A program made the translations under genes and the position numbers. Positions 1 through 48,400 of a stretch of DNA of 64,000 bases are shown piece after piece (position 1 is the stretch's first letter; each line of letters opens with the position of its first letter). The notes under the pieces are model-generated. The model saw nothing but the letters and a program-made list of their open reading frames with translations. It made no database searches and was not told the DNA's origin. The DNA comes from Raillietiella orientalis (Eukaryota): positions 3,596,001 through 3,660,000 of the forward strand of contig JAYWIR010000015.1 of assembly GCA_036172245.1 (NCBI GenBank). The letters are read 5' to 3'.

Positions 1-982
<982 letters not shown>

Positions 983-16630: not shown

Positions 16631-16748
16631 ACCTGCTCGGGCTCCCGCTCGAAGCGCGCATTTCTTTCGCCTTTTACTAAAGAAATCCGTGGGCGGGAGC
16701 GTCGAAAAGAGCGTTTTCCGAATTTTTGTGAGTGCCCTTTTAGGGCAA
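16631..16748 (+). ncRNA. U5: U5 spliceosomal snRNA gene (complete, ~118 nt)
   Basis: Invariant loop I GCCTTTTAC (16669-16677) closed by TTTCTTT/AAAGAAA. Internal-loop CCG. Stem GCTCCCGCTC/GGGCGGGAGC. Basal GCTC/GAGC. Sm site AATTTTTG (16721-16728). 3' hairpin TGCCCT-TTT-AGGGCA. Confidence 0.95.
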
Positions 16749-16751
16749 GCC

Positions 16752-18415: not shown

Positions 18416-18424
18416 ACCCCCTTG

Positions 18425-21400
18425 ATGGCCTCGTCCTTGTCCACCGCTAGGAGACTAAACATCGCCTCCTGGAATGTTATTGGACTTCAAGAGCAGGCAA
18501 GAAGGAAAAGAATAGTGCGGAACATCGCGCACTGTGACATCGTGTGCCTACAAGAAACCCACGTGATGGAGCAACAAATCAGCCATGAACTGGACAGGCG
18601 ATTAAACGCCCAGCTGTTCACCAGCGAGGGACAGTCGTACACCATGGAGGTGATGATCTCAATCAAAAACGAGCTCGCCGCCACCATTCTGGAAACCTTC
18701 TGTCCCGTACCTGGAAGAGTCATCACCTTGACGGTTGTCCTGCTCCGCAAATGTTCACCTGTTTCTGGTGAATGTTTATGGACCCCACCAAGACAAGCAT
18801 CGGTGCGCGGAGACGCTCCACGAAGCCCTCCGACAAAAGGTCGCACCGAAGGATATCGTCATCATCGTTGGGGATTTCAACATCCCGGATGAAGTCGTCT
18901 GCTCCCGGGACGTCAGAGGCAGGACAGCGTATCGGCGGCTGTCCGACGAGTTTGGGCTTCGATGGCTAACTGCCATCCACAAGCCGATCAATCACGTCCT
19001 CTGCAGCTCCGACATAGGGAACCGAGTCTTTGGGTTTCGCGGCATGCTCTACACAGTGTCCGACCACCCATTGCTGAGGTTTTCCCTGAGGACTGAAAAC
19101 CCTCGACAAAAGAAGGCACCCAGGGCGGTGCTCATCAGCATGCCCTCCTGGTTTGAAACGCTACCCTATCACCAAGAGCTCGTGGAGGCGATTCTGCAGT
19201 CGACCACCATCAGCAGAGTCGCCGACTGGGATAGCATGAAACATCGTGTCCACCTCTTCTGCAACATGCAGTTCGGGGACAAGAGATTGAGGCAGGAAGC
19301 GTACCGGGAGCTGAACATCCAAGATCGCTCCCTCTCGAAATACTGGCAACAGTACGAGAGTCGGTACGTCTTCCAAAGCATCAAGGGAGAAGTGGGAATG
19401 CTGGAGAAGAGGAATCTGGCAACAGATATCTTCTGTATCCAGTACGATGGTCGTGCCAGGCACGCGTCGGAAGACATCACTGAAGCCTTCCAGAGGCATT
19501 ACGTGGAACACTTCCGACGCAGACATCTGTGCAAATTATACGAAAATAGCTTTCTGAAACATCTGGAGAAACGAGTCGATGGAAAGAATCGAAAGATACT
19601 GGGAGAGGAAATCTCCGAAGAAGTGAAAGCTGCGTTCAAGGACCTTCTCAAGGATGTGGCAGCGGGCCCTGATAATGTTCCCATCTCACTCTATCAACGG
19701 TACCTGCATGCCTACCAGCGTTTGTTCCACCAGCTGACGCTACGCATCAGGGAAGAAGGACGACTACCGCAATCCTTCTATGAGAGTAGGATGAGATTGT
19801 TACCAAAAGGAGGCGACCTCACGCAGGTCACCCAATGGAGGCCAATCTCGATCCTCAACTCCGATGCCAAGTGGTTGGCGAAGATCTGGGCCAACCGCCT
19901 CGGCAAGGTCATGCCGAGGCCGATCTCTCTGGTCCAAACATGTGTGGTGCCTGGACGCCACATGTCGGACAATGTCAAGTGTCATCAAGCTACCATTGGA
20001 CTCAGCCGATATATCGGCGAGAGCTTGGTACTAGGCTTCACTGACATGGATAAGGCTTTCGATACGGTGGACCATGAGATGCTGCTGGAGATTCTAGGAA
20101 GACTGGGCCTCCCAGAATACTTCCGCAACTTCGTGAAGATGATATTCGAACAACATTTCCACATCAAGATAAACGGGGAAACGAAGCAGCTATTCGGATG
20201 ATGGAACGCGGAGTCCGTCAGGGTGATGCTCTAAGTCCGATGCTGTTCGTCATCTATATGGAGGCCCTCTCGTCGTACATCGAGAGAACTGGGTACCTCC
20301 AAGGAATCAAAGTGGACAGTTAAAGGCTCACCTACTGGCCTACGCAGACGACCTTCTCTTCTTGAAAGGGGAGAGAGACCAGCGAGGCTTTCTGCATGTG
20401 GTGGAGCTTATGAGTGAAGGATTGGGCTGGAAGATCAACGCCCAGAAGGGCCAGCTTTTTCCCGTCGGAATCCTGGACCTCTCTACACTCACGAGGGAAG
20501 GATTCCGTACGGTGGATCGAATTAATTACCTGGGTATCCACATAGGAGATGCTTCAGCATCCCAATTACTGCGGAAAGAAATCCTGGGGAGAACAGCAGA
20601 GGAAGGAGCGAAGTACACCCGCTCGGACTTCAATATGAAGAGCAGGGCCAATCTTTGGAACGGAGTTCTCCTTCCAAAGATGCTCTTTGGAGCGGCCTTC
20701 TCTACAATATCCCAGAACACCAAGCGCGATGTGGAAAAGCTTCAGCGGAGAACCCTCTGGGGAAAATATCGACCGAGAGTACGCCTTAAGCCACTTTGTC
20801 GTCCTAAGGAAGAAGGAGGATCCGGGATGAAGTTGCTTGCATACGCCGTGGACGTCATGGACGTGCGACAAATCCTGGAAATGTCTTCCAACTGGGACGA
20901 CTGGCCGTACGCAGCGCACAGGGCGTACTCGCTGTTGTTGAACAACTCGAGAGGCCTGATGATTGCGCTGGTTGGCAGAGTTGGTGAATGGTCCACCATC
21001 GACCCGACGTGGCGAAGGAAACAGAAACTCGTCAAGAAACAACACTTGAAGATCATCCCGAAGAGCAAAGAACTCTGGCAGGAGGAATCCATCCTGATTA
21101 TCTCGTGGATGCTCCCCGTGCAGGATGACACGAGGAGCTGGATAAACCAGTGGTCCGGAGTGACTTTGCGTAATACGGAATCATGGGTACGACGACGACA
21201 CCTGCATCATTCTCGGGTGCTGAGTTATGTCGAAAGGATTTCTGGCAGCTTCACACTCAGGACCCGCGAAGTGTGGAAAAATCATCGCGACTTCGCATGG
21301 TCCAGAGTAACGAAGAGGAACATTCGCCAGTTATTAGAAGAGGAACAAGACACCAGCGCTCTCCGAGATGCCGCCGACCGCTACGCTAGTAGTGGATTCA

Positions 21401-21919
21401 ATCCACTGGCGATTGGGACGGTGCTCTGGAGGAGTGATTGACCACCGGACACTCAGGATAACCTCCTGATGTTTTTCCATGGAGGCATCATGAGTGGTTG
21501 CAGGATGAAGCTCTTCACGGGAATAAGAGAGGAAGAAATCTGCAGAGCGTATGGTGGAATAAATACAAGACGTCATTTCCTGACTTGCCCCACACTGCAA
21601 GCCGAGTGGACTACTCTGAAAAGGGCCATCGGGCTGTCCAACGATAGAGGTTTTGGCAGGGATGTTCCAGGGAACTGGAACGGTTCCCCGCTATAACCTC
21701 ATGGTAAGAGTGACCATCGACCTTTTCATCACCGCCATTATTGTGCGGTGGTGGAAGATGAAGACCACGAGGACCACCATATCTCCCCTGGGGATCCTGA
21801 AAGGGCTCATCCAGAGGGAGATTGGCATCAGAAACTGCGGACGAGTGCAGGCCTGGAACTACCGAAACATCCTGAGAAGGATTGGAGGAGGAACCCAGGC
21901 CCAAACGACACCCAGGTGA
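18425..21919 (+). pseudogene. LINE ORF2 (APE endonuclease - reverse transcriptase), frameshifted
   Basis: APE motifs ASWNVIGL, DIVCLQETH, VNVYGP, IVGDFN, SDHPLL. RT motifs AAGPDNVP, WRPISILNSDAK, DMDKAFDTVDH, RGVRQGDALSPMLF (~20207-20250), YADD (20341-20352). L1/Tx1-like LCRPKEEGGSG. C-terminal CRAYGGINTRRHFLTCP. Several frameshifts and stops. Confidence 0.92.
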
Positions 21920-22076
21920 TTAAATGCAGCGAACTTTCCAGAGACCCAAAGAAGCAGACTTCGAGTGAACCCCAGCGATAGGAAGTGCAATTTTTGTTCA
22001 ATTTGTATGAATGAGATTGTAGTGTGAATGAAAGAGAAAATAAACTTACCCCACCCCTTGTGGGACTTTGGGAAAC

Positions 22077-22169
22077 CGTTTATTTCTTTCGCCTTTTACT
22101 AAAGAAATCCGTGTGCGGGAGCGTCTAAAAGAGCATTCATGCAATTTTTGTTTTGCCCCGATGGGGCGA
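22077..22169 (+). pseudogene. U5: 5'-truncated U5 snRNA copy immediately 3' of the LINE
   Basis: ATTTCTTTCGCCTTTTACTAAAGAAATCCGTG is identical to the upstream U5 over 32 bp. Sm site AATTTTTG at 22143-22150. A different but intact 3' hairpin GCCCC-GAT-GGGGC, then a 3' box. The first ~24 nt are missing. Confidence 0.92.
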
Positions 22170-25840: not shown

Positions 25841-27689
25841 GGATTGCGATATGGGTGGTAGGCGAAAGCCCGTCATGCATGGAGCAGCTCCGCAGCAGCT
25901 TCCTCGGGTGTCTTCAGGACAAAGGAGGACAGCTGCAAGGGCGTTTCCAAACTCTTCAAAAAAAAAGAACACCTCAGAATTAGGTGCGGGAATGTTTCCA
26001 CTATCCAGCACCAGGAGCAGTGGGGGACGACGCTTCCCCTTCGCCCAGCAGTATCAGCTCCGATTGCGTGGGACGTTCCGAAGCACGAGAAGCATGCTGT
26101 CAACTGAGGGGAAGCACAGAGCTGTCCAAATAGAGAAAAGGGATCACCAATTCCGAGGACTGGATGTCCAGAAGATCCTTCCAATGTGACAGTCTTTTGA
26201 CGTGCGCACTAGACGTTGCCGTGCCAGCTAGCAGCCGCCTTTACCGACGCCCGTGCCTCGAGAGCGTGACGGCCCCTCCTGGGGAAGGTTTGGATGTACC
26301 TCGGTGCCGCTACTTATCTTCCTGCCCCTCTCACCCAAACTGCCATTCCGGACGACCGGGTTTTCCTGATTTGGGAATTCCTCCTTTTTCCGAGAGGAAG
26401 GAGTGGAGGAGGAATCGAGTGAGAGAGATGTAGAATTATGCTCCTTACAACGAGCACTCGAGGTCCATCCCATTCCACCACCCAGGAAGCTATTTTATGA
26501 TTACTTTTCCTGATTCTGCGACATAAAGAAGAAGATGGACAACGTCCACTCTGAACAGGCGTACGCGAAGACAACGTTTCAAAAGTTCCCTCCGTCGAAG
26601 TTTCCAGCCTTGTCGCAGCTGACAGAGCGCCACTCGAGAAGCAGAAACCTACCAAAGAAAACAACCAAGACTTTTACTGGGGTTCCACAATGCATGGAGG
26701 CAGGAAAGTCTCTGTCCCCCAAAACTCGGTGTGGTGAATGTGGCGAGCAAGGACAGCTCCTGACCCGAGTCACGGTGTGCCACTTCAAGGCTGCGGAGAA
26801 CACCAGAAGGGAAGTGGCTTCAATCGCAGGGAAAATCCATCAAAATGCAGAATAAGGAAAAGAAAACCATGCCGCCCAAAATGGAATAGACTACTTATGT
26901 TTCTAGTTTTTCATATCCTTAATCCCTCCTACATTCTTTCTCCTGCGTAAACCCCCTCATGTCCCCTCAATCTGAAGAAAATGGAAAAAGATAAATTTGA
27001 CTTCATTTTTCATTCGATTACTGTATACTGGCTGCACCAATTCATCTTATGCCTACTAAAATTCACCTGCATCCTGCTATAAATTATTTCACCACAATCC
27101 CACTCTTATTTATTCGGAGATAACACACTATCCAAAAACGCCGAGAATGATCTAGAAAATCATTCCAATTCCATCAATTAAAATCTTCATCAGCTCATCC
27201 TTCCTGCTTCTCCTCATCAACCTGTCGAGTCCCACAGTCGCATCCATCTACGTCTTTGCTTCTCACCATTTTTCTCTGAATCTCAAGGCGACCGTTCTCT
27301 GAATATGCAGCAGTTTTCAACTCTGTCGTGCATCAAAAAAAGAAAGAGAAAAGAAACCTGACACTCAGATATAGCACACACTCTACCACTAATAGAACTC
27401 ATATCTTATTCGAATTCTTGACCAAATTCTCATTCTCATCTTCTTAGGGGCTTTACTTATGTTTTCTATGAAAATGCCCTCTAGTCTTTCTCGCTGATCA
27501 CACTGTTCGTTTGGTCGCGTCTTCACTTGACCGCGACGAGAAAGACAAAGATCAAAGTTTCATCAACCTCGGCTCCAGAATAGCGCCCCGTCGAGGGACC
27601 TCCGCTGCATGTCCTCCGTTTAAGGCAACTCCCAGTCGCCTATGCAGGGCCGACCGCCGAAGATGCGTGCCCGTGGGCATGAGAAGCGC

Positions 27690-27860
27690 CTTCCGAGCGT
27701 GCGGGAGAAGGAAGCAGAGAAGGTGATGTATGTTGTCTCATAGACTAAACCACTGCATGAGGCATTCTCCCATGTATCAACAACGGCACAATGCAACTGT
27801 GGATAGAATAAGGAAAGCCTCCATCTCTACAGCCGGATGGAGACCGATCTCTGCGAACCT
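27690..27860 (+). mobile_element. Remnant of an RLE-type non-LTR retrotransposon (NeSL/Utopia-like), C-terminal zinc-knuckle region
   Basis: LSHRLNHCMRHSPMYQQRHNATVDRIRKAS...WRPISAN fits the L-x-H-V-x-N-H-C...R-H-N-A-x-V-x-R motif that precedes the restriction-like endonuclease. Confidence 0.65.
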
Positions 27861-30800
27861 ACGTCTCTGTTTTGCTTTTAGTGAATTGCTACCAATTTCC
27901 CAAAGTCACTTGTTTCTTCCCGGAAGCTCACTTGGTCGCTGGACACCGTATTTCTGTTGGCCTCGTGATTCAAACCATCTTTCTCAGTTCCTACGAAACT
28001 TATTTCATCGGAACAGATTGGTTTGAAAACTTTTGGTATTGAAAGTCAGCTTCAGCCAAAGGTCAGTCAAGCAATAGTTCGTGCAGCTTGAGAAACTTCT
28101 TATGACATGGAACAAGTGCTTAGGAATCAAGGAGAAAAGCGACGAAAGCAAGTTTTTCAGATTCTGACTTTGAAAAAGTCAAAGAAGAGAACTTCTCTAA
28201 TCGTTTGCTTATTTATTACGATGGGAAAACGGCATCCGAATAAATGCAAAAAAAAAAAATTGCAAATGCCAAGAGCTTTTTTCGATGTCTGGATATCAAA
28301 ACTTCCTGTGATGCACAAAGGATGCTCAATTGCTTGGCATGAAATCCAAAAGGGCATCAAAATTAATAAGTCTGTTACTTGAAATAACGAAAAATTCATT
28401 GCTTTGGAAATAATACGTTCCCAAATTATTAAACAGTAAGCGCAGTGAATCGCGCAGTTGCGAAGTGTTACAGGGATTCAATCAATAAAGTAAGTAATCT
28501 AGGATGATCTAGAATTAGGTATCAGGCTATCCCGTAGAGAGGTTGCGACCAAAGTACATCATCCAGCGTCAGTATCAAACTGCCCAAGCTCACTTATGTT
28601 AAGAGGACGGAGGGTACCCAGCATCCGATCTGTAAACATTCGGATGCGTAAAAATGGATCGACGCTGTCCAACGCAATCCAGCAGTTTACACCTAGAAAA
28701 ACGTACACACACAAAACACTGATTTTCTCAGAGGGCGAAAGCTCGAAGGCGATCGTGGGTTACCCTCCATTTGCATTTTCTCTTTATGGATGTCCACAGA
28801 AAAGGGATGCTGTCTCTTCCGCGTGGCATCAGAGAGAAATCGCGAGCGAATTCTTCTTAATGAATTCCCATCGGAAAACACGAATTTCGACACGGACAAA
28901 TGAATGGTGCAATCAGGTGTCATTAACGAAAGAAAGTAGGAATCACTGAAAGGTACATCTGAAGAGACACGTCTCATAAATAGCTCAGAGTGACTCTTAG
29001 GAGTGAGCTAAAGGTTCCAAAGGTATCCTCTCTCTTATTAATTCAGAATTGGTACTCTCAGAGGCATGCATTCAAATCCCATTTTCCAACTTGAAGTCTC
29101 TCAAAACTCAAGACAGAAATTTAATCCCATAAAAAGAAAGTGTTCCTCCAGCACACGGAAATGCGAGATCGCAAAGGGGAAAATGAATTTACTTCATTTC
29201 AATCGCATTTTAAAAAATAAAATGCAATAGAAAAAAAATCAAATCAAATCAAACCATATCTTTGTGTATGAAGAATATAAACACAAGATGATAAAATCGA
29301 AAGAAAAAAAAAAAAAAAAAGGGTGGGGGTGGGGGGGACCAAAAATCGATACCTACCTGCTCCGTTTAGAAAAGAAAAAAAGAAAACACCTTCCAATTTT
29401 CTGAGAAACCTTCGACAGAGACATAAGGAATTCACGTTCGGGAAGCTCCACTGCCTTCCTGCATTTATCTTGGAAAACGATTTCTTGCGAAATCCAGATA
29501 CACTTTCCTAGAAGGCCACTGATTCTTCTCAGCCTGAACGGACAGTTCAAGAACGACTACGGAATGGGATCCGTGAGGATTCCTTTCTGCGCCTCAACTC
29601 TTCTACAAACAGTGGAAAAGAGCTGTAAAACATGGAGGAGGAAAACGCTGCCCTCAACAGAGACTACCAGAGGGAGCATTTTATAAACTGCGGAGCTTCA
29701 CTTGGGAGCACTTCATCATTCTGTCCCTTTGGCAGCGGCTCGCCGTCGTTCCTCTTCAATAATTCCGTGGACGAATTGCGCCGGCACAGAGAGTTCAATG
29801 CAGGACACGTGGCTGGTTTGTCTTGCCCGGGACGATGGCTCGTGGGGTCGCCCTTCGTGGTGAATTGGCTCTTGGCCCCACGACCATGCTTTTCGCTTAC
29901 TGTTCCGGAGCGTGAAGACACAGCACACAGGAACCACTTGTCACTCTTGGTCATCCACGACCGGTTGTCTGCGAAAGACGGTTACAGCCACGCACGAAGA
30001 ACGTTACTCTGGCAAACGAAGAGCAGCGGTGTGAAATGCAATGGTTGGTTTCTTTTGTTCCTTTCCCAAGTGGTGTTTCATAGACCAATTTTTTTCTTTT
30101 CCCCTTCTTTCAGATACATTTTTCTCCATCGATGCATCTGAGGTTGTGACCTGACGAAATTTGGATGCTGTTTGTCGAGGTTTGCAAAACACATTAAAGG
30201 AAAAAAGGTTTCACTGGCTCTCGATAAGGTGCAGCTGACAGCAAATAAAACGAAAATCTGAATAAATGGGAAATATTCCACCGTACGAGTGCAGCTCCTC
30301 GATGTACGACTCATCCGAAAAGTATGAGATGTATACCAACAGCCAGGCATAATAATCAAAGATGCGTTTGGAGAGAGAGAAAAAAAGTTCTGCGAATTAA
30401 CAAAATGAAAACGATCGTTTTACTTGCTGCTTCTAAATCTTTTCATGCTGCTTTCGTCCCTTTGCTGCCCTTTCATTTCAAAGACTGTTCTTTGTACGCA
30501 ACTGTACGTCACCTAATTAAATGACGAAGAATAAAAAAACAAACAAACAAACACTTTACCCGAAAACCGTTTTATTTCCGTATCGAATTGCGGACTTGAA
30601 TTGCGGAATTGCAGGTCAAGTCGTTATGAGCACCACAATTTGGGAGAATGAAAACTCCTGTTACTGATTTCAATATGAATACAACGTTTTTTCCTCTCTA
30701 TAGCTGAAACAACATTGCCTTACGAACATTTCCAGACTTTTCCTAATTTTCATGTTTGCTTACTAGCGGAACCTCAGCAACACAATTACATTTCTCCTTA

Positions 30801-31230
30801 TATAAATCTATATGGAGAGGAAGCTAATGAAATGCAGTAACGTGGTTTTATTAAATGGAAATAAATCATGAGTATTTCATGATCGTAAAATCACCTTATG
30901 TAATATACACGCCACATAATGTTCACCATACGTATTTGCTCAAAAACAAATAATTTAATTGAATAAATAGGCGATAATGCACCAATTAACAAATGAACAA
31001 AAATCCTTGATGTTTGACTCATCACTTATATGATACCAATTAATTCATAAAAACCTCAAAAAGTAAAGGAATAAAATCAAAAATTACATAAGGAAATAAC
31101 TTTTCAATTAATGTACTTTAATGTCATTAGTTTGCCAATCATTAAAAATTCCTGAAGCTTCTAGAGTTCTTGCTATGAAACAATTTTACACACAATGGTC
31201 CATATTTCCAATGATAAATAAGTAATCTCA

Positions 31231-31824
31231 TCAGCGATCAATTTGTTCCATGGGAAGAAAGTGGCAGCCTAATAATCCTGGGCCACTCCAGATCTCTGGC
31301 ACTACAGTCAGATAACAGACGTTGCCTGCTCTACGAACAACCACAAAAATAGGACGCCCCCTGCTATGCCCCACTATGGTTTGCAAATCCATCAGACTAT
31401 TAAAATTTGAAGCACTGAGGGAGCCAAACTGAATCAACTGGTCACCCTGCTTCAAACCTGCTGAAGCAGCAGGTGAAGAAACAGCCACACTTTGCACATA
31501 GGCAAAAGCTTCTTCCGTCCCTGTTTCATTCATCGACTTTGCTGATTGGTAAGAGGCATGTAGTGAATGCAAGCCCTTTTCAATTTGTTGCATTATCTGA
31601 TTAAGATCTGTTTGTAAGCATCGAATCTCATGCCTCTGCCACCTGATGGTGGCTACATCTATATCAGAACGAGGATAACCTTCTGAATCTATCAAAGCAT
31701 CTTGCATGTCTATGCCACTCTGCTTAAGTGAGGTGAATAAATCACTCAGTTTTTTTTCAATGAGCTGCTTCTCCTTCATCAAGGACAGAATATGTTCTCT
31801 GCCTTGATTCATGGAGCAAGGCAT
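31231..31824 (-). CDS. PSMD9: 26S proteasome non-ATPase regulatory subunit 9 (p27/Nas2), intronless; alternative start at 31812
   Basis: Nas2 N-domain LIDSEGYPRSDIDVATIRWQRHEIRCLQTD, then a PDZ domain FAYVQSVAVSSPAASAGLKQGDQLIQFGSL...WSGPGLLGCHFLP. The first ATG is at 31824; the track's 31875 start is a GTG inside MZT1. Confidence 0.95.
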   Translation of the reverse strand: MPCSMNQGREHILSLMKEKQLIEKKLSDLFTSLKQSGIDMQDALIDSEGYPRSDIDVATIRWQRHEIRCLQTDLNQIMQQIEKGLHSLHASYQSAKSMNETGTEEAFAYVQSVAVSSPAASAGLKQGDQLIQFGSLSASNFNSLMDLQTIVGHSRGRPIFVVVRRAGNVCYLTVVPEIWSGPGLLGCHFLPMEQIDR

Positions 31825-31825
31825 A

Positions 31826-33287
31826 CTAGCACTTCTTTTGTACTGCTGCTTGACTTGCCTCTTTTTGCAATTCACGTATAACGGTAGCTAGAGCTTCTGG
31901 AATAAAAAAATCATTGAATCAGTGACACATGACTTAATACACAACAGTTCATTTGCATTCATCAGACACACAACAGCTATTTGGCTCATCTTTGTCCTGG
32001 ATATTTGGAGCAATTATAGTTCAAAATAAATACTCCAAATCTCTAAACAATCCACAAAATCTTATTTCTCATTATCACAATTCTTGATGCATTTTTAGTG
32101 AAGTGCATAGTATACTGTACACTGCAGATTGTTAGTGTGCAAAAACATAACTACTTTGGTGTTAACCTAACTTGTACAAAAGTATATGTATAATTAACTT
32201 TGATGCATTAGAATTATTTAGTCGAAAAAGAACTATTTGAACATAAAAAGGCAAATGGATTTAATTTCTAATTAAAAACAAAAACAAAAGCACTGATGGG
32301 AAGTTTTCCACTGACACCTTAGAATATCGAAAAATTGGTGAACAGAAAGGGTGATGTATAGTTCGACAACTTTGGGAAAAAATGAGTCAATGCATTTTTT
32401 TGCAATCGAATTTGCATTTTTAACAATGCGTATCCTTCGTTTACATGTAAACCGAATCCACCTTAATTAACAATCAAATTTATCAATGACAAGGACTGGA
32501 ATCATGAAAAGCACTTAACATAGTAGTTCCAACTTGGCTGGAATTGTGAGAAACAATACTAAGCACTATTAAATCAGATGATTAAAGATTTTGCACTAAA
32601 TCTTTACATCTCTGATCATTAACCTGTCGTGATCATATGTTTGGTTTTCTGATAGTCACAACAATAAATTTCGTTTTAAATAATTAGTTCAAAGGCAAAT
32701 GCATTTGGATTCAAAATTCTCACTTTGCACGCGTTTCAGATTATGGAGACGCGCAAATGATTTCAAATACAAAACAAAAAGTCCATACAATTTAAAATGA
32801 AAATAATTCTTGTGTCATTTATATTGCAATTCGAAGATGATACTCGAAACTCGAAATCATTACATCACATTGTGCTTGCTTTCAACATAAACAGGTGGGT
32901 AATGAACAGTTACGCCGCATGACGGAGGTACTACAAAATCAATCTCAAGAAACATGGCGACTGGTTTGTTCCATCATCATTTCAGTATAAAAACTAGAAA
33001 CACCAGAGTTGCAATTATTTATTTAAAACGCATCACGTATAGTTCCACTGAATAAAAGTAACTATATAAGATGCTGAGTGCACAGTAACATGCAATAGCA
33101 AAAATGATCGGAAATTACTACTACTACGAAAACCTCACATACCGGGATTAACACCTAAGTCACAAAGACGAATACAAAGGATTAAAGTTTCTTCATCTAA
33201 ACCAGTGTTCAGCAACTGGGAAATTTCTCGTAAAGTATCTAATGCTTCCCTAAAAGAAATCAACTTCGCAGCACGATCATTAGCCAT
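31826..33287 (-). CDS. MZT1: Mitotic-spindle organizing protein 1 (MOZART1/GIP, gamma-TuRC), 71 aa; exons 33287-33143, 31896-31826; 5'UTR intron 33363-33297
   Basis: Spliced translation [71 protein letters not shown] carries the MOZART1 signature EIS-x-LLNTGLD-x-ETL...C...G-x-NPEAL...I-x-EL. Canonical phase-1 intron (gtatgt...ttccag). Confidence 0.95.
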
Positions 33288-36200
33288 CTTCCAAACCTAC
33301 GAAACACAATTTTACACGATTACCAAATGCAAATAGATGAAGAAAAATATTTCATATACTTACGAAACTTCATAAAAAATTTACTGTTTCATTTGAGAAT
33401 GATTAAACGTCTATACTAAAAATAGAGAACTTTCAGGACATTTTTCACCTGGAAACAAACATTCTCCAATTAAAGCGAAACATAGACTCCTTTGTCGTTT
33501 TTGCTGTGTTTGAGATCAAATTTCACTGAACGGTTAAAACGATATGCACTCACAAAAGTTTTTATGTTATTAAAATTGGCGAAACTTGGAATCTGACATA
33601 AGTGGTTTCGATTTTCCAGGCTACACACATGTTAAGAAATCTTCCTGAGTATCCAGAAAGAAATGTGTGATTGTCCTGATGTCGAACATAGTAGTAAAAT
33701 ACTTCCGTACGTTTTTTCTAGAAGTAGTCTCTCAGCATTCATTTTTATTTGTTTCAGGAGCATCATTATTCATCCATAAAACACATCGAATTGGTGACAT
33801 TTTTTTAATATACTTTCCTGTAAGCTTTCAAAATTATGTTTCGGAATGATATTTTATTTAAAAGATTTAATACTCAAAAGGGAAGCAAATAGAATAACAG
33901 CGATTCTTAATGTAATGGATTCATTAAATAACTACATATTTATCTGTCTGTGTTTTCCCTTTCATTAAAGTCTTTTACACTTTATTAGAACATTCGGCTG
34001 TTTGTTTCGAATAAGACTGCGCAAAGAAGAAATATTTTATCAGTTTGAAAAGACAACGAAATTCTTTTTTTTTAAAAAAAGTTCTACAGGAAGAAAAAGT
34101 CTTCTTTGATATGATGAAATTGATATTTCTTAGAATGTAAACAAAGTGATGTGCTGCTTTGAAACAGCACACTGAAAAAGAAAAACAAAAAAGCCAAAAC
34201 AAAAATCAAGATGTACGTTGTCGAAAATTAACTGAAAAAAGCAATAAGTTTAAAAAAAAGCAAGTGACTTCATAAAAACAAACGAGCTGATTGTTCATCT
34301 TATCACATCTGTATTCATCATGGCATGATGGTGACTGCGAGGCTCGGTGTTGAATTAGCGAACGAAGTCACCAAATTCAAAAATACAAGAAAATGAGTAA
34401 ATTGCATACTATGACATTCGTAGATCGAAGTAACATATGGCTAATTTGGTCAAGTCTTTTCTTGACGACTTTGATGAACGAAAACAAGATGATAGAATTG
34501 ACAGCACCTGGGAACCTGCAGATCTGTCTGGAGCGAAGAAGAAAACTTAGGAATCTTCCTTCTGAGTAGCAAAATTAGAGTTCTGTGATTAATAACAAGC
34601 TCATTTATTATTTTGCAAGTTCATTTCATTCGCTAGAGGTTTTCGTTCTGACGAATATCTACGCTAATGATCCATTATGAATCAAATTGACAAAGAAAAT
34701 TTGCAATGGGAATGAGCTAATTTCTCTAATGATCAGCATTCATAATAGTATTCAATCTAACCTAATGCAATCTCTCTTCAGTCCTGATTAGACTCCAACA
34801 TACTGGTTTGAACTGCTTATCTTTTATTGGAATCTTGAGTTAAAAAAAAAAGACGTCAGAAGTAAGTTAAAGATGAAATCAGCAGATGACTGAACATCTG
34901 CATTTCCTGATCCATAGGCTCAGGAAACTATCGTGAAAGAGTTAGTGATTTTAAACCGTGCCCCTGAGAATCAGTAATTTGCAGCATATCTTCTGCTGTT
35001 GAGACATTGGGCTTTCTTAGAAACCTCATGGCTTTCACAAAGAGTGGAAATTTTGAATTATGGTCGATTTTTGGCAACAACAACAGCAATTAATCTACGC
35101 AATACATCATTGTCAGAAAGTAGTTTTTGAAAGCATGAATTATTTTTTTATAACTTTACTTGATTTCGTTTGTCTCTTTTATCGCAAATATGAATTAAAT
35201 TCTATTGATTTTTAGCGAGCTTTGGTACTGAATTATCTTTTCTGTATTTCTGTCATTTGAAAGTTAACATATATAATGCATTAACCTCTTAAATATTAAG
35301 TAAGTTTTATCTTTTGATTACTTATTTGGATCCGTATTATCATTCCAAAGCATGGTCCTCACTCAAATAGGATGATTTCTTTGCATTCTGTTTACATAGA
35401 GCAACGCAAAAACAATGCAAAGGATGCAAAATTGCTCATGGTCTCAATAAGGGGGAAGGAGAATTTGGAGTCGTTTTCTAAATCTAAGAAAGATCAGATT
35501 TTCGATCATATATGAAAAGCTAATCCAGTTTTCAAGATTCATTTGATTTTCTTGTAGTATTTTATTTTGGGTTTGAGGTCAATTAATTTTACTACTGAAG
35601 GGTTTGCTTTGTAGTTTATTTAGAGACCGTGTAGGCTTTCAATGAAACGTGTCTTTTCAATTAATTTTCATCAACTACATATACCTATAATTCTGATCGA
35701 AATGGATCAAATTTATGGTGCTTCCTTGTTGAAGGTTACATCTATTGAGAAGATACGAAATTCTTGTATTAGATCTTTCATCGACAGAAAGATCCTCTTC
35801 AAACGAATTCATCTGCTGTCTTCTTAGCAGACTTGATGCAACACCAACGAATGAATGGAGCACGAATTACACCAAGAAATTCATAAGTACCGAGTCCCTG
35901 TGTGGAATAATTATGCTTAGTATTGGTATTAAATGCTATTATACCTAATCATGTGGTCATCCAAAACAGGATGCAGGCGGGAAAAACTTCGAATGTGTTT
36001 GTAGATTGCATCTTTGGAATGAACTGCTACAGAGACTAATATTTCGAGTTTAACTAGTCTCAGTGAGGGAATGCATCTGTTGGAAAGGCTTGAGGGGGAT
36101 GCTCTGATAAACTTTACGGCATCGACATCTTTGCATACATCCCGGAGTTGCACTTTAATGCACGCAGTTAATAAACAATTTTCTTTGCAATCATACAGTA

Positions 36201-37699
36201 CCAGAGAATGCAATGAATAATTGCCCTATCTCAATGACAGAACGAACAATACGTCGTTACTTTAGAAGTACTTTAGGAAATGATGTAAGCTACCTTAGCA
36301 ACGCAGTGTTTCCGTATTGCTTGCGCTTCCGTTTGTGTGATCTTTAGAATGACGTGAGCAAAATCGAGCGTTTGTACTCTGCATTCTCAAATAAAATAAT
36401 GTGTTCGTTCCCACGGAAATTAGGTGACGCAGTAACGGGTTCGAGGGAATCTACCCTCTGTGCTTTTTATTGATTGCGTGATGGTGACACACTTTCCTTA
36501 TCAAAACATTTGGAGGAGTCGATCAAGTTTCCGCATGCCATGAGGAAGAACACAAGCTGTTTCCAAGATAACCATGACGCAAGGTTCCTATCGAAAAGTA
36601 TTTTCGGTTTTTAATTGAGCTTTCGGCCTTACTTCCGGTATGAAAGGCTCCTTCCACTGGCAATCGAGTCAGAGAAAAGGGTCAGAGGAACTTATTCCTT
36701 CTTCCACTCTGCCTTCCTGGAGAGCTGACAGGTGCACCTCATCTTCCAAAAGCGCTGCAGAAAGATGCCGAATAACTTGGGAGCTGCCCAACTTCACGAG
36801 TCTGATTTCTCGTTGAGTATAATTGCGTCACTGCCGCAGCCGAACAACAACAACAGCAAAAAAAAGGTGCAACTTGAGAATCTGACCATGAGTAAGTCTA
36901 GGTAGGAAGAGCAAAAGGCGTCCTTCGAGACAGCAGCCTCGCTACTGTAGGCTTGATGGTACCTCCTCGATCCTCGACTGGGTTCACGTACCATCTTTCA
37001 ACCGCTCAGGCGAAAGCAATCAACGGTCCCCATTTCTGCAGGACTCGCCGAACGTCGCCGTGTGTTGCCGACAGTGGGTTCCTTCTCCGTTCCGCGTCGC
37101 TTTCCCCTTCTTCCTTTCTGACGTCTTCGTCCTCCTAAGAGCTTTCTGAAAGACTCCTGCAGTTAGCCCGTGCGGATCCCGCTGTGGTCCTCGCGATGGC
37201 AGAAGTCGTCAGGAAGACCAGGACTGCCTTCGCTGTCTTTCCTCTCAGAAGCAGCTATCAAGGATTTCATTTCTCGAAGCTGTTCCGGAGGATGGGGAAA
37301 CCAGGAGTAGGAAAAACGCGCCGAGCCTGCTCACGAGTTGTGGATTCGCTCTCCATGCCTCCGGTCTACTCGCAGGGATTTCCACGTCTGCTAACTCGAG
37401 GTGCCCCTTCTTCCTCAGAGCTGAGTGTTTCCTATGCGCGAAGTTGCCGTGTGAGGGCTGCTGGTGATGTGGTCTTCTCATTTCCTTCAACAACCTTTCC
37501 CCCATCAACCCTCAAATGGAATGTTCCTTCTTGAGAGCTTGCTTCTGTTATTCCTCTTGACATCCCTTTTTGATCCTCTCCTAGAAGTGCAAGGGAAGGC
37601 TTCTAGGAGGATCGCATCAAGCAAATGAAAGTAGAGGGATCAAATTCTCTGACATGGAAGAAAGGTCTTTTTTCGGAAGTCGTCAGCGCATCTCTTCAG

Positions 37700-42409: not shown

Positions 42410-45400
42410 TCATTGGTGTATGTACCACAAGAAGAAGTACATGAGGAAGCATAAGTACGCGACCGGAAACACTACTCGCGAGATCACGTCGATGGACTTG
42501 GCTATCCGGACAGGGTTGTATCCGTCTTCGGAAGAGGCATCTTGTCTTCCGGCCTCATAAACAACTCTGGAAGAGCTTCCAGCTTCCACGACCACGGGAA
42601 GGTTCCCGTTCTTCTTGTCCGACCTGTGCTTCCTGATCTGCAACAGGAAAAGGAAAAGCAAGTGAGGACGAGTAGCCTGCGGATGAGAGCAGAGTATGGG
42701 GGTGAACGCGCGCGTGCTCGGAGAGTCCCTGGAGAGAGTCTTTGTTTGGTCTTTGAAACAGAGCTCCAGCAAAGAAGGAAACCAAGGAGGAAGCCAGGTA
42801 GAGAGAGACTGCTTTGAGGCAGCAGGACTGCAAGCGCCATCAGTGGGTTGCCTCAGGCGGAAGGTCCAGGGGGAACAAAAGGGCCCGGACGACAGTGATT
42901 CAGAGGAGGACAGCATGACGGAGGAACCGGGAAATGATCTCGGAGCAACTGCCTCTTTCAGCGGTTCCTCCAAGACGCAAATCCGGGAGAAGAACAGGGT
43001 CTCCATGCACACAATTCCTCCACTCAGGCTTTTGCTGGAGGCCGCTTGGCTGTGGTCCAGCGCGCGGTGCCAAGCATTGCGGGTTCGAACCCCAACCAGG
43101 GAAGGATCGACGCCGAGAATCAGAGGTGCGTCGTGGGTTCCAAGTCCCTCCCGCAGAATGACTCTGGTTGGTCCAGGAGTTTCGAGTGCAGCACCCGTAG
43201 AAGTCGAAATCCCCCAGATGCCCCCGTTGACAGGCCGAGATTCGAAGTTGACCCTCCGGTGTCCTTCCAGGAATCAAGAAGCACTTCGGAGTTCCCATCC
43301 GGTTGTGAAAATGGAGCCATATCATCGCGTACTGGGGTTGGTTGTTACCCCCCTTGAGGGGGTTGCCTCTCCAGAGTGCAAGAAGCACGCTGCTCCCTTC
43401 GTGGAGAGTCCTTCAGAGAAATTGGGAAGCGTCCCTTCGAAGTTCTCTTCGGAGGAGGAAAGAAGGAGAGCTTCCCCTGTGGGTTTTCTTCGGAGAAGAA
43501 ATTCCCTTCAGAAGAGGATCCTTTCCTGATTCCATTCGGAAAAGAAATAACGGAGCCGCTCCCTCCAGAGAGTCCCTCTGGAGAGAATAAGGAAGAAGTT
43601 CCCTTCGGGGCTCTCAACCAAGCGTGAGGTAGAGTGGACTCCTTCCTCCAGTGCCTTCCTGGATTCATAGGGTAGTCTCTCCGAGGTTACCCACTATAAC
43701 TTTGGAGGGTGACACGCATCCCCGGGTGGAGTGGACAGGGCGCTTTCCTAAGGAGGCGAGCGATTCTTCAGCACTTGGGGAACCAAAAAAAGAAAACCCG
43801 AAAGAAAAAAAAAAGCAGAAAGGAAAGCAGGGAAACCATAAGAACCCAGAAGGATTTCCATCACTCGGTCGATAGCGCCATGGCGACAACTTTGTTGCCA
43901 AGCGCAATGTCGTGGGTCCACAGGGAGGAGGCACCATCGTCAAAACTCGCCTCGAAGGACAAGCACGGGACAAAATCCACATCGTCCTTGGAGCAATCTC
44001 CGACCAATCCTGGTCAAAGAGAGTGGCTAGGCACTAGAGTTCCCCCTAGGGGTTTCCTCAGAGACATCTTCGAGGTGAGCCCCCCGAACCCAGAACAGCG
44101 TACGAGAAAGTCTCTAGCAGGGTCAGGAGAACCTGAGTGAAAGGATCCAGATTCCGGCCGCCGTTTCAGTTTTGGAGAGTAAAGGAACCCAAGTCTGTAA
44201 ATAGGGAACTCTGAAATCGAGACGGGAGAACCTGTAGGAATCCAAAAAGATGGTTGATCACAATCCTGTAGTGATTCTTTGATCTTTTCATCAGGTAGGG
44301 TCACATGATGCCCAGATGGTTCTTCCTCGAGTGGCAACAGGGCCCAAGCCTACTGTAGGAACGGTGGCTGGTGGCTGCAGAGAGTTTCGAGCAGCAGCCC
44401 TTCAAAATGATCTGGGAGATCAAGCATCTTTGAGGTCAAGGAAGTGAAGATAGCAAACGATGAACTCGAAGGATTTCAGGGAGAGAGAGCTCCGAGGTTC
44501 AGGAACATGGAGATGAGGAGGGAAAAACACGTTATCAAATGAACACAGTACGCCCATGAGGGCGAGACCTTCGCTTGCAACAGCGAAAAAGACGCGAGAA
44601 GGAAGGGTTCCAAGCGGCAACGCCTGAAACGGCAGCACCCAAAGCCGCTGCTCTCCCCGGAGGCCGGGTTGGCAGTTCGCGTTCGATCCTGCGCAACCCC
44701 GTGGTTCCCCGGCGGCTGGACTCTCGCTAGGAGTCTCCCTAGGAAGGTGGAGCGCTTAGAAATGCTCAGCTTCTGGGTACGCTAGAGGGAGCGGGATCCG
44801 GGAAGTGCTCAAGTGAATACGGTGGGGAGGCGGTTGAGATAGCAGCTGCCCGCGACACTGGCAAGAGAGATCCGTCAGAGATCCTGGGAGCAAGATGCAC
44901 ACGCCTCACGATCAGAACTCAGAGAAGCTGCAAGAGACCTTGGACCTTGTCCGAGCACACAACTGACACTACAGACTATAAAATTGCTCCTGAGAGAGAA
45001 GAGAAGAGAAGGAGAGTGTTGGTGCTTCTTGTGAGCTTTCCTCAAAGGAAAGAAGGGAACTCACGGATCTGAGCCGCATTCTTTTCATCCCCAGCAGCAG
45101 CAGCTTCGGCATGCTGCGCTTCCGACCGATGTAGTTGACGCAGATGAAGCTTAGCATAGAAGCGTAGATGAAGACCATGCAGACTCCGTCCCAGGCGTTC
45201 ATGGCTGTCAGGTTGGACACAACCGGTAGATTCGACCGAAAGCCATTGGACGTCGTGAAGAAGTTCAAGATGGTGGTGACCCCGATCATGACCCGGGCAG
45301 GCACAGCATTCCACTCCAACCAGAACGTGGTAAACGAACTAGAAACCAGGACCAGTCCCGGGATGAAAACCGTGGTGAAGTAGAAGGCCCTGTCCCTGGT

Positions 45401-48400
45401 AAACTTCAGGTCCACTCGGAGGCAGCTGAACTCTCCTGGAAGCATGGAACACAGCGCTCGGAGACGTAGGAATCTTTCCCCCTCCCCTCTGCAAAAGAGC
45501 GCGCCCTTGGGGACTAAAGAACCTCCAAAAGCTCTCTTGCTTTTGGTGAGCTGGACAGCAAGATAAGGAAACAGAACGATAGCGCTTGGGTGGAGTCGAA
45601 GCTGTTGCAGGGCGCGCCTCGACCTTGAGTCTACCCTCAAACGCCTGGGTCGGAAGTTGCGCCACGGACCGAGATCACTCCGCCTATTTTTCCAACTCCA
45701 CAATCTATGGTCACAAATCCTTTCGAGGCACGGGTCATTTGCGCTGGTCCCTTCCAGGTTTCTCCGCTCCCCATCGTTTCTGCTCCGCATGGTGGAAGAA
45801 GAGCAGCAGCACCGCTCAGAGCGTCATTGGCTCGTAGTCGCTGAGAAGGGGTTGGGTCGAAGGCCGCTGGCAGAATGCCTTCCCTTTGGGAGGTCGGAAG
45901 CTCGGCCGAAACTCTACTTCCTTCTGCCCCCCAAATAGACCCTCTCTGGACCCCCTCAGTGGGCAGACGGCTCTCGAGACAGGTGGGCGAGCCCTCCGAC
46001 GAGTGGAGGAATCTAACAGAAGACGGACGGTGCCAGAGAGAGAGGCACAAAAAGGAGGAGGTCTTTTTCCAGGGACACCCGAGGGGTGTCTTCTCTTCGC
46101 CGCCGCCGCATTGTGCGCGCGCACGCAGGGGGCTTGGCAGCAGCGACCCACCTCTCCAGGAACTCACGTCACAACGGACGGTGCTGTTGTCCATCAGGTA
46201 GGCGTTCAACATGGTCAGCTTCTCGCCGCGCAGGATACCGTTGCCCCCCTCTGTGTCCGACACCCACTGGTACTTCAGCATGTCCTGCTCGTATGAGTCT
46301 GCAAGAAAAATCAGCCACCTCTGAGGTCGTCTGTTCGGGGACGGAGGACGGATGGACAGGAGGGTACGAGGGAGCCATCCACTTGCTCCCCTCTTCCTTT
46401 TCTCTCCAGTCCCTCTGGTGGAGGAGGCGCTCCTGGTGGCCGCGCCGGAAGTGTCCCGGAAAGGCGACAAAGGAGGGCGAGGAGGAGTGAGAGAGGATGA
46501 GGAAGTTGAATGAGGCGGACGAATGGGTGTGCACGCCGGAGGAGTGGCGGCCGTATCACCTGCTAATACTCACTGCTTTCCAGCGAGAAGGAGCACAGCG
46601 GAAAGTCGAAAGGGAAGATCCTGAGGTCTCCCTGGCAGGAGAGGACGAGACTCCTCCTGGAAGGAAGACGAATCGGTCTCCAGCTGGTGGATCTGGGAGC
46701 CGTCCCAGTCTGGGGAACGGGGCCTTGGGAAGGGAAAAGAGAGGACTCCACGGAACAAAGGGGTCCTTCGCCTTCCCCCCTCTAGCGCGACGCAGGCGAA
46801 AGCGGAGAGAAATACCTCCAAAAAGGGGATGGAAAATGGGGCGGCGGAAGGGAAGGATCGCTCCCACAGCACATTTTCGGGTCCACCACGAAGATGAATC
46901 CGGAAGCCTTGCCTTCCTGTCCCTTTTCCCTCGGAAGGGACAGCTCCTCTGAAGAGCTACGAACGCGAAGAAAGGGTTTGCGAGCTCCCTCTCAAGAAAG
47001 GAGCGCTGGAAAGGCGCGGAATGGTAGCCACCCCCCCCCCTTCCCTCTGGAAGGACTCTCAGAAAGGGAAAGCTTCTCCCAGAGGTCCGAGTCTCCCTCC
47101 CGCACACTGTCCTTCCCGCTGACCTGGTGGTGTACTGGACGTCCCCGCTGCTGAAGACGCGCAGGACTAGGTTGGGCACGGTAGGGTCCTTGAAGTCCCC
47201 GTGTAGGATGAAGAGGGTATCCGGGAGCCACAGGTGGTCCAGATGCTGATAAGCGTTCAGGTAGTTCTTGCGGCTGTGGTTGCGGTGGCGCAGGCGCGGG
47301 TCCACCCACCGCTGATGGAACAGGAACTCGATCTCGTACTTCTGGAAGGGCTCAGTGATTCCTTGAGAGTCTGGGAGGGAGTGCGCGCAGTGTCTGTAAG
47401 GGTTCCTGGAACCAGGACATCCCTCCCTAGGAGACGGCGTTGTAGGATTGAGGGTAAGTTGGAATGCGAAGCCGCGAGGGGTGGGAAAGGTTCGCGAGGG
47501 ACCGAAGGATCGAGGGAGGGGGCAGAATCTGGGAAGGAACCCCCTGAGTCGGAGGTCTTGCTCCTCCCCAGAGTTCCTCCCTGCGAGCCTGTTCGCAGCG
47601 CGCGCTGGTCTGGGAGTTCGTTCGCCCCTGCCCACCCTCTCTTCGGGCTGCTCGTCTGACAATCCCTGATTTTCCCGGATGGAGAATGGCACGATGCCAC
47701 CACCATCTTGAGAGAGTGGGGCGGTCAAGGACCGAGGAGTGGGAGAGGGAGGAAGAGGGAGAGGAAGAAAGCGCACATCTCCTGAGTATTGGACTTTCTC
47801 TTCGCCTCCATGTCCTGACAAAGTTCTCGAGACGCCCTCAGGCGGAGCGAGTGAGGCGCGTACATTTCTGGGATGGAAAGAGAGAGAAATCTTCCTTCCC
47901 CAGGTCGCCTAGGGAGAAGAGAGAGGGTCCTGTTATGAGACTAGGAGGAGGTACAAGTGACCTTTTTTTCCGTTCAGAACTCCCTCGGAAGAGGCGACGA
48001 ACCCAGATAAGGAGCTGGTGGGGTAGGGGAAGAAACGGACGGATGCTCCCGGAGGTACTTACCAGGCTGGACTCATCAGGGGACGAAAGACTCAGCAGTA
48101 GAAGGCTAACGTTGACGACCACCGGACCTGTGAACAGAGGATGCTGCATGAGAGCGAACTCCACGGATTTCCCTGGAGGAGGGAACCCACTCCCAGGTGC
48201 TTCCAGGCGGAAGAGAGAGGGATACTGGGAGGAAGGAAACGGTTCTTTCTTTTCGAGAAGAGCATGGCCTGGAAAAGGGGAGGGGAAGGGAGGTATCCCC
48301 TCCTCACCTGTCCCCTAGCTTTTGCACCCCTGCCTTGCCCGAGAGAGGGCAAGTCGATGAGCGATCCCTTCCCGAAAAGGCAAGGGGAAAAGGAAAGGAG

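Follow-up and report, generated by a model that had tools for sequence, protein, structure and literature searches.

The MZT1–PSMD9 locus

A locus of Raillietiella orientalis in which the coding sequences of two conserved genes, MZT1 and PSMD9, lie one nucleotide apart raises the question of how the downstream gene is expressed. The locus is contained in a 64,000-nucleotide stretch of contig JAYWIR010000015.1 (the window), to which all positions refer. MZT1 and PSMD9 are arranged head to tail on the minus strand, and a common exon holds the MZT1 stop codon, one nucleotide and the PSMD9 start codon. By direct reading, the MZT1 TAG occupies positions 31828-31826, a single T at position 31825 forms the spacer, and the PSMD9 ATG follows at positions 31824-31822. 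Both ORFs are complete and lie on the same strand, and neither a promoter nor a poly(A) site separates them. A gap of one nucleotide between conserved, unrelated ORFs of the same strand is unlike ordinary intergenic spacing, and the locus is dicistronic in structure. An earlier note on this DNA had described the arrangement, and all of its coordinates proved correct to the base on the minus-strand reading.

Relative to MZT1, PSMD9 is read in the +1 frame. In this frame, the third codon past the MZT1 acceptor (exon from position 31896) is a TAG at positions 31890-31888, and a stop-to-stop ORF (31231-31887) opens directly after it. This TAG was seen as the earlier note had it, and an in-frame fusion through the acceptor at position 31897 is therefore impossible. 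The shared exon contains no ATG upstream of position 31824, again in agreement with that note. The pair stands alone in its neighborhood, with no other recognizable coding exon within ∼4 kb on either side. When the 85 ORFs listed in the region 27000-37200 were considered without the two MZT1 and PSMD9 genes themselves, none of the remaining 83 stop-to-stop ORFs of at least 48 amino acids gave a Pfam match.

Identity of the two encoded proteins

The MZT1 ORF is split into two exons (ATG 33287, donor 33142, acceptor 31897; minus strand). The start-codon exon (33143..33296, ATG 33287-33285) encodes residues 1-48 and the first base of codon 49; its 5′ limit at position 33296 is the putative acceptor proposed in the earlier note. 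The exon ends at position 33143 and is followed by a GTATGT donor whose GT is located at positions 33142-33141. The intron (31897..33142) is 1246 nt long with 32% G+C and closes with a T-rich tract and CAG just before position 31896. In the shared exon, MZT1 coding sequence (31826..31896) supplies the last 23 codons and the TAG, and splicing in silico yields an open ORF of 71 codons. The MZT1 ATG at position 33287 has a strong context, with A at -3 and G at +4. Exon 1 contains exactly two additional ATGs, both out of frame as previously claimed, at positions 33280 (6 codons) and 33196 (4 codons).

By Pfam, MZT1 is a clear family member. Exon 1 matches positions 1-36 of the MOZART1 profile (PF12554) with an E value of 1.9e-16, and the exon-2 peptide, which is sub-threshold by itself (E 0.08), extends the profile match at positions 36-46. 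MZT1 is a tiny microtubule-nucleation protein of the γ-tubulin complex. Proteins of the MZT1/MOZART1 family are typically about 70-85 residues in size, and the domain is found here in a protein of family-typical length. The Drosophila Mzt1 protein consists of 82 amino acids (PMC6065531).

The PSMD9/Nas2 (p27) ORF (31231..31824, minus strand) is complete and intronless, with 197 codons and a TGA stop. Pfam identifies PSMD9 as a clear family member as well, with an N-terminal helical Nas2_N domain (PF18265; E 8e-29, 99.8 bits, cut-off 23.2; residues 14-90 aligned to profile positions 3-79 of 79) and a C-terminal PDZ_2 domain (PF13180; E 2.9e-7, 31.1 bits, cut-off 27; residues 107-174). PSMD9 is a proteasome assembly chaperone unrelated to MZT1; its fly counterpart is CG9588. 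In an alignment of eight PSMD9 sequences that includes this ORF, the N-terminus lines up with the homologue starts, and all 35 invariant columns are retained over the full length. A representative search returned 2508 relatives at E ≤ 0.001. Identity does not exceed 48% among the best 150 of these 2508, and the best-matching clusters have names that range from insects, fish and mammals to a tardigrade and a mollusc. An ETFA exon compared with longer proteins reached no more than 59% identity, over many phyla, and an Atlas search gave bacterial ETF clusters alone. In a 14-row tree, this PSMD9 forms a long, unplaced branch within Metazoa (1.59 changes per column versus a median of 0.87). The intact ORF, the conserved columns and the Pfam matches despite low identity point to purifying selection, under which PSMD9 would have to be translated somehow.

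Junction structure and 3′ end

No AATAAA or ATTAAA hexamer is present between the MZT1 and PSMD9 stop codons. The first canonical poly(A) signal after the MZT1 stop is the ATTAAA at position 31122, 110 nt beyond the PSMD9 stop, and a candidate shared 3′ UTR (30847..31230, minus strand) additionally contains ATTAAA at position 30959 and AATAAA at position 30852. The statement of the earlier note that a promoter or poly(A) site would not fit between the ORFs is thus borne out by the 1-nt spacer and by the lack of either hexamer before position 31122. Because no poly(A) signal separates the two stops, a normally polyadenylated MZT1 mRNA should include the whole PSMD9 ORF.

The junction itself displays no outstanding signal. 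The UGGGA word of viral termination-reinitiation sites is absent from MZT1 exon 1 and from the part of the shared exon that precedes the junction. The 157-nt junction region is not unusually structured (z -1.6). A local hairpin (31778..31808, minus strand) starts 13 nt after the PSMD9 AUG and has a predicted energy of -15.9 kcal/mol in a 44-nt window. Its z of -3.39, with 2 of 200 shuffles as good, refers to a window that was picked after the fold was seen, and more stable folds occur at two other places in the exon (-20.9 and -17.6); the hairpin is not exceptional within the exon.

Proposed expression from a dicistronic mRNA

The best explanation, held at even confidence, is a dicistronic locus like those catalogued in Drosophila. 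Transcription would begin upstream of MZT1, and the 1246-nt intron would be spliced out. The resulting mature mRNA would contain the 71-codon MZT1 ORF, UAG, one U and the whole 197-codon PSMD9 ORF, and would be polyadenylated at the signals 110-380 nt beyond the PSMD9 stop. MZT1 would be translated by ordinary cap-dependent scanning because its AUG has a strong context. We infer that PSMD9 is produced mainly by post-termination reinitiation, in which the 40S subunit released at the UAG would restart at the AUG two bases further downstream, with leaky scanning past the MZT1 AUG supplying a minor share. Both short out-of-frame ORFs of exon 1 terminate well ahead of the PSMD9 AUG and would therefore allow scanning to resume. 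Reinitiation efficiency drops as the upstream ORF lengthens, and 71 codons is long. The length of the MZT1 ORF, the missing UGGGA word, the unremarkable folding of the junction and the space that the intron offers for a separate PSMD9 start site stand against the dicistronic reading.

A stricter form of the dicistronic reading, in which PSMD9 is promoterless and is translated solely by ribosomes coming directly from MZT1, through UAG-U-AUG coupling, is put forward as a tentative and somewhat unlikely proposal. PSMD9 output would in that case follow MZT1 output at a fixed ratio, and the locus would be a eukaryotic ‘operon’ of an obligate type, joining two housekeeping genes that are essential and have unrelated functions.

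The earlier note also proposed that skipping of MZT1 exon 1 gives a PSMD9-only mRNA. This isoform requires a hypothetical 5′ non-coding exon, the end of which (33364..33373, minus strand; GTAAGT donor from position 33363) is suggested by consensus-like splice signals alone. The shared exon is AUG-free ahead of the PSMD9 start as the proposal assumed, but the putative skipped mRNA as a whole is not. The hypothetical exon carries an ATG at positions 33373-33371, 9 nt ahead of the donor, which opens a 26-codon uORF that enters the MZT1 exon-2 frame and ends at the same TAG. The short uORF of such an mRNA would favor reinitiation.

Conservation of the gene pair

The pairing of MZT1 with PSMD9 was sought in other sequences. 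A metagenome scan gave 208 pattern matches, 145 relatives and 80 PSMD9 loci that were kept, and 58 of the 80 include 300 or more bases of sequence ahead of the PSMD9 start. MZT1 exon 1 matched none of the 80 loci in tblastn (best E 3.2), a comparison with probably mostly distant taxa rather than with close relatives. No Pfam match above the cut-off was obtained for 19 upstream ORFs that end near the PSMD9 start in these loci. One sub-threshold DUF7151 match was observed among the 19.

Protein searches gave a similar result. MZT1 exon 1 had no significant phmmer match (best E 0.34) in 167 PSMD9 relatives, comprising the best 150 of 2508 and 17 near-length matches. The near-length search (17 matches from 98 candidates) yielded none with a MOZART1 domain in precomputed Pfam annotation. 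A comparison of MZT1 exon 1 with longer proteins (27 candidates) also gave no matches, which is weak evidence. Drosophila Mzt1 adjoins CG3229 rather than PSMD9 (PMC6065531). That no conservation was found is a point against the dicistronic reading.

Alternative explanations

PSMD9 could instead be expressed mainly from its own monocistronic mRNA, with its ORF in the MZT1 mRNA serving as untranslated 3′ UTR. Such an arrangement with separate promoters is a serious possibility, although it falls short of being probable. PSMD9 transcripts would originate from the 3′ portion of the MZT1 intron, from the shared exon or from an alternative first exon spliced to position 31897. Transcription initiation within the 1246-nt intron is a third route to PSMD9, which the earlier note did not weigh. 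The last ATG before the PSMD9 start is located at position 31916, in the intron, and a start between positions 31913 and 31825 would generate a short AUG-free 5′ UTR. The strong MZT1 AUG and the 71-codon length of its ORF likewise disfavor translation of a downstream ORF. The intron contains TATA-like and Inr-like words, but these are expected by chance at 32% G+C and none is diagnostic, and the Drosophila-derived motifs of housekeeping core promoters (DRE, Ohler motif 1 and the E-box word) each occur zero times in it. Separate promoters would also leave the exact 1-nt spacing unexplained. The fly catalogue bears on both sides of this question. At 114 of 159 FlyBase dicistronic loci, one or both genes also have a monocistronic form (PMC4528330), but one FlyBase pair with the same 1-nt spacing, CG34314-Rad1, is annotated as exclusively dicistronic (PMC4528330, supplement file 2).

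It is very unlikely that the locus is a trans-spliced operon of the nematode or tunicate style, in which a spliced leader (SL) added at the AG of the TAG would generate separate MZT1 and PSMD9 mRNAs. The AG is suitably placed two bases ahead of the PSMD9 ATG. However, the pyrimidine-rich acceptor and the upstream 3′-end signal of an SL operon are both missing, as the bases before the AG are purine-rich without a pyrimidine tract and no poly(A) signal serves an MZT1 mRNA ending at its stop. No SL RNA family was found in the window either; the two RNA matches there are both U5.

A PSMD9 retrocopy inserted into the MZT1 3′ UTR, untranslated or redundant and decaying while a working gene resides elsewhere, is highly improbable. 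An intronless ORF and a long branch are what such an origin would leave, but intronless PSMD9 is found elsewhere too, for example in metagenomic contigs L002 and L004, which match in one piece. Moreover, the 197 open codons, both domains and all of the invariant columns in the comparison with the homologues are at odds with decay, and no second PSMD9 copy lies within the window. Neither a poly(A) remnant nor target-site duplications characteristic of a processed retrocopy were found: no A-rich tail follows the 3′ UTR, and the sole flanking direct repeat is a T-rich 11-mer at chance level, one copy of which is the pyrimidine tract of the intron.

The bolder variant of coupling is a fusion of MZT1 and PSMD9 by programmed +1 frameshifting at the MZT1 stop, where slippage of a ribosome holding UGC (P site) and UAG (A site) would give AGU AUG. 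This variant can hardly be credited: shift-at-a-stop sites such as that of antizyme exist, PSMD9 is in the required frame and that frame is open from position 31887 so that a slip meets no further stop, but one in three frame relations fits by chance, no MZT1-PSMD9 fusion occurs in the 167 PSMD9 relatives or the 27 longer MZT1 candidates, and no stimulatory structure stands out.

Significance

If PSMD9 is made from the MZT1 mRNA as the dicistronic reading proposes, the locus would offer a clean natural case of translational coupling in an animal, with a 1-nt spacer and a 71-codon upstream ORF. The two conserved products can be assayed easily, and the pair would be a useful test of the reach of post-termination reinitiation among cellular mRNAs. 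Genes of MZT1 size are often missed in annotation, and gene finders that assume one ORF per transcript will lose either MZT1 or PSMD9. The pairing so far does not bear on whether microtubule nucleation and proteasome assembly are functionally linked.

Comparison with known systems

Termination-reinitiation in viruses is directed by the TURBS of caliciviruses and influenza B, in which UGGGA motif 1 is located upstream of the junction. As at the MZT1–PSMD9 junction, the stop and start codons are adjacent or overlapping; the downstream viral ORF depends on upstream termination, as is proposed here for PSMD9. The locus does not belong to the TURBS class because motif 1 is absent upstream of its junction. 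A second parallel is provided by MIEF1-MP and ASDURF, functional microproteins encoded upstream of the main ORF in animal mRNAs. In these cases, too, an upstream ORF of ∼70-100 codons encodes a stable protein that belongs to a different complex from that of the downstream product. The MIEF1-MP and ASDURF ORFs are located within the annotated 5′ UTR of the main gene, whereas the upstream ORF here, MZT1, belongs to a universally conserved gene that contains an intron, and its distance from the downstream ORF is 1 nt.

Green algae produce both proteins from one capped polycistronic mRNA (PMC7896298). The algal mRNAs resemble the present locus in their small upstream ORF and short inter-ORF distance, with leaky scanning and post-termination reinitiation as the candidate routes. 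Changes in the upstream Kozak-like context indicated leaky scanning in the algae (PMC7896298). The MZT1 AUG context is strong, and reinitiation is therefore favored here. The main text of PMC7896298 does not contain the words MOZART, proteasome or tubulin. A literature search on MZT1 and PSMD9 with bicistronic, dicistronic or polycistronic arrangements found no report of such a pairing, in keeping with the earlier note, which knew of no described linkage of the two genes.

The closest counterparts are found in Drosophila. FlyBase R6.04 holds 159 dicistronic pairs, 45 of which are expressed exclusively from dicistronic transcripts (PMC4528330). Supplement file 2 of that study lists CG34314-Rad1 (‘1 nt bet. 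stop/start’, ‘all di/polycistronic’) and tectonic-CG42730 (2-nt spacing), both labelled ‘unrelated’, and both annotated as products of dicistronic transcripts exclusively. Like MZT1 and PSMD9, these pairs consist of unrelated ORFs on the same strand with a gap of 1-2 nt, too short to accommodate a promoter or poly(A) site, and CG34314-Rad1 further resembles MZT1-PSMD9 in that one partner is a conserved housekeeping gene. The fly pairs comprise different genes and are backed by cDNA or RNA-seq, whereas MZT1-PSMD9 is known here from sequence alone. CG9588 and CG42787 (Mzt1) are absent from the supplement files of PMC4528330 other than file 1. The architecture of the locus is already known from Drosophila gene pairs, and the pairing of MZT1 with PSMD9 is new to it.

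Structure of the MZT1–PSMD9 locus

The minus strand of the window between positions 30800 and 33800 was read directly, and its stop-to-stop frames were listed. The MZT1 ORF starts at an ATG (33287-33285) in a strong context, with A at -3 and G at +4, and extends through 48 codons of exon 1 to 33143, where a GTATGT donor follows. The 1246-nt intron (32% G+C) ends with a T-rich tract and a CAG acceptor ahead of 31896, the first base of a shared exon that holds the MZT1 3' coding end and the whole PSMD9 ORF. In this exon, MZT1 continues in the same frame for 23 codons to a TAG stop (31828-31826), and scripted in silico splicing joins the two parts into an open 71-codon ORF. Exon 1 matches the Pfam MOZART1 profile at positions 1-36 (1.9e-16). 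The exon-2 peptide takes up the profile again at positions 36-46, which provides independent support for the splice.

The downstream ORF (197 codons; ATG 31824-31822 to TGA 31233-31231, minus strand) is separated from the MZT1 stop by a single T (31825). It is a full PSMD9/Nas2, with matches to Nas2_N (8e-29) and PDZ_2 (2.9e-7) above the Pfam cut-offs. Its N-terminus aligns with the homologues' own first residues, and all 35 invariant columns of an eight-sequence alignment are present. Identity is at most 48% to each of the best 150 of 2508 matching representatives, no near-identical match was found in the protein collections searched, these 150 included, and a small tree places the protein on a long, unplaced branch among animals. 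An ORF of such divergence that nonetheless stays open throughout and keeps both domains is, judged by its sequence, under selection, and on that reading it must be translated. The 64-kb window contains no second copy of MZT1 or PSMD9, and the locus lacks signs of recent retroposition, with no A-rich tail and direct repeats at chance level.

The earlier note proposed a bicistronic unit with a TAG-T-ATG junction, and its coordinates proved exact in the minus-strand reading and frame listing. Scripts also reproduced the two additional ATGs that it had reported in exon 1 (33280 and 33196; each is out of frame, has a weak context and opens a short ORF, of 6 and 4 codons, respectively) and the absence of any ATG in the shared exon ahead of 31824. 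In the PSMD9 frame, the third codon of the shared exon is indeed TAG, so that splicing cannot yield an in-frame MZT1–PSMD9 fusion. No AATAAA or ATTAAA lies between the MZT1 and PSMD9 stops, and past the MZT1 stop ATTAAA first occurs at 31122 and again at 30959, followed by AATAAA at 30852. Barring a non-canonical site, every MZT1 mRNA therefore spans the whole PSMD9 ORF, and the locus is firmly dicistronic in structure. The feature is real and had been precisely described; its mechanism we infer.

Translation of PSMD9

Translation of PSMD9 from the dicistronic mRNA has, in our judgement, an even chance of being the route used. The 1-nt stop/start spacing, the AUG-free shared exon, the early termination of the short upstream ORFs and the Drosophila dicistronic precedent argue for it. 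The strong MZT1 AUG and the length of the MZT1 ORF argue against it, 71 codons being long for an upstream ORF that allows efficient reinitiation, as do the absence of the UGGGA motif of viral termination-reinitiation elements (TURBS) and the unremarkable structure of the junction region (z -1.6). An 11-bp hairpin (31778-31808, minus strand; -15.9 kcal/mol, z -3.39), chosen after the fold was inspected, begins 13 nt 3' of the PSMD9 AUG. Hairpins at roughly this distance past an AUG can aid its recognition, and the position of this one is suggestive of a role in AUG selection but carries little weight; two other shared-exon sites fold more stably, and by the standards of the exon the hairpin is unexceptional.

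The earlier note also suggested that skipping of the MZT1 start-codon exon (33296-33143) yields a PSMD9-only mRNA. The evidence for the putative 5' exon, which ends at 33364 (minus strand) and is followed by a 67-nt intron to 33296, consists of good consensus splice signals. This exon has an ATG at 33373; in the skipped isoform it begins a uORF of 26 codons that is in frame with MZT1 exon 2 and ends at the same TAG. An mRNA of this kind would therefore still contain an upstream AUG, although it would exchange a 71-codon upstream ORF for a 26-codon one, favouring reinitiation.

The main rival to dicistronic translation is a separate PSMD9 transcript that is initiated within the intron or the shared exon. 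If transcription began between 31913 and 31825, the 5' UTR would be short and AUG-free. A motif scan of the intron found no diagnostic promoter motif, and we regard this route as possible while leaning against it. All other readings are improbable even when taken together. Trans-splicing of a spliced leader at the AG within the MZT1 stop codon is unlikely, with no pyrimidine tract before the AG and no 3'-end signal for MZT1, and a +1 shift at the MZT1 stop would enter the PSMD9 frame but finds no further support beyond this frame relation.

Genomic surroundings

The MZT1–PSMD9 pair is isolated, since none of the 83 other stop-to-stop ORFs of at least 48 aa between 27000 and 37200 (85 listed, less the two gene ORFs) has a Pfam match. 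A long G+C-rich block (48-62%) with many open frames on both strands occupies 36000-64000 and contrasts sharply in composition with the AT-rich MZT1–PSMD9 island. It contains minus-strand exons of a Cys-loop ligand-gated ion channel (Neur_chan_LBD, 46556-47908; Neur_chan_memb, 44969-45823).

A block resembling a non-LTR retrotransposon lies between two U5 snRNA matches of the same orientation, each full-length over model positions 1-117 of 117 (16633-16750, plus strand, 82.1 bits; 22057-22169, plus strand, 55.5 bits). The arrangement could reflect either an snRNA-associated element or the duplication of a unit. The LINE-like element (17525-21441, plus strand) has frame breaks, Exo_endo_phos (2.7e-5) and RVT_1 (2.5e-11) ORFs, and a CCHC zinc-knuckle-like ORF that was spotted by eye and has no Pfam match. 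Its G+C content is about 52-54%, versus 32-38% in genic islands. At 82-741 (plus strand) lies a large exon that encodes part of electron transfer flavoprotein alpha (ETF 5.5e-27, ETF_alpha 3.1e-24). Its identity to animal ETFA from many phyla is at most 59%, which fits an animal lineage that evolves fast or has been poorly sampled.

Comparison with other lineages and known dicistronic systems

MZT1 exon 1 found no match in 80 metagenomic PSMD9 loci (best E 3.2), none of the 19 upstream ORFs abutting PSMD9 in metagenomic loci had a Pfam family above cut-off, and an MZT1-like stretch occurs in 0 of 167 PSMD9 relatives. A search for longer proteins related to exon 1 returned none, which is weak evidence. 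In Drosophila melanogaster, a passage of PMC6065531 has the Mzt1 coding end overlapping the 3' UTR of CG3229, which is not a PSMD9 gene. Given these comparisons, the linkage appears lineage-specific, or at least not widespread.

A literature search found no paper on the pairing, in agreement with the earlier note, which knew of no described linkage; the architecture is already known from Drosophila, and the MZT1–PSMD9 pairing was not found described. The fly counterparts are CG42787 (Mzt1) and CG9588, which we take to be PSMD9. Both are absent from supplement file 2 of PMC4528330, the file searched, which does include unrelated pairs with stop-to-start distances of 1 nt (CG34314–Rad1) and 2 nt (tectonic–CG42730). 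According to the portion of that paper on FlyBase annotation, polycistronic transcripts occur for about 2.5% of genes, with 159 dicistronic pairs, in 45 of which both proteins apparently come from a dicistronic mRNA only (PMC4528330). Green algae, as outlined in part of PMC7896298, use the same architecture as MZT1–PSMD9 on a large scale, and leaky scanning is favoured there for the polycistronic mRNAs.
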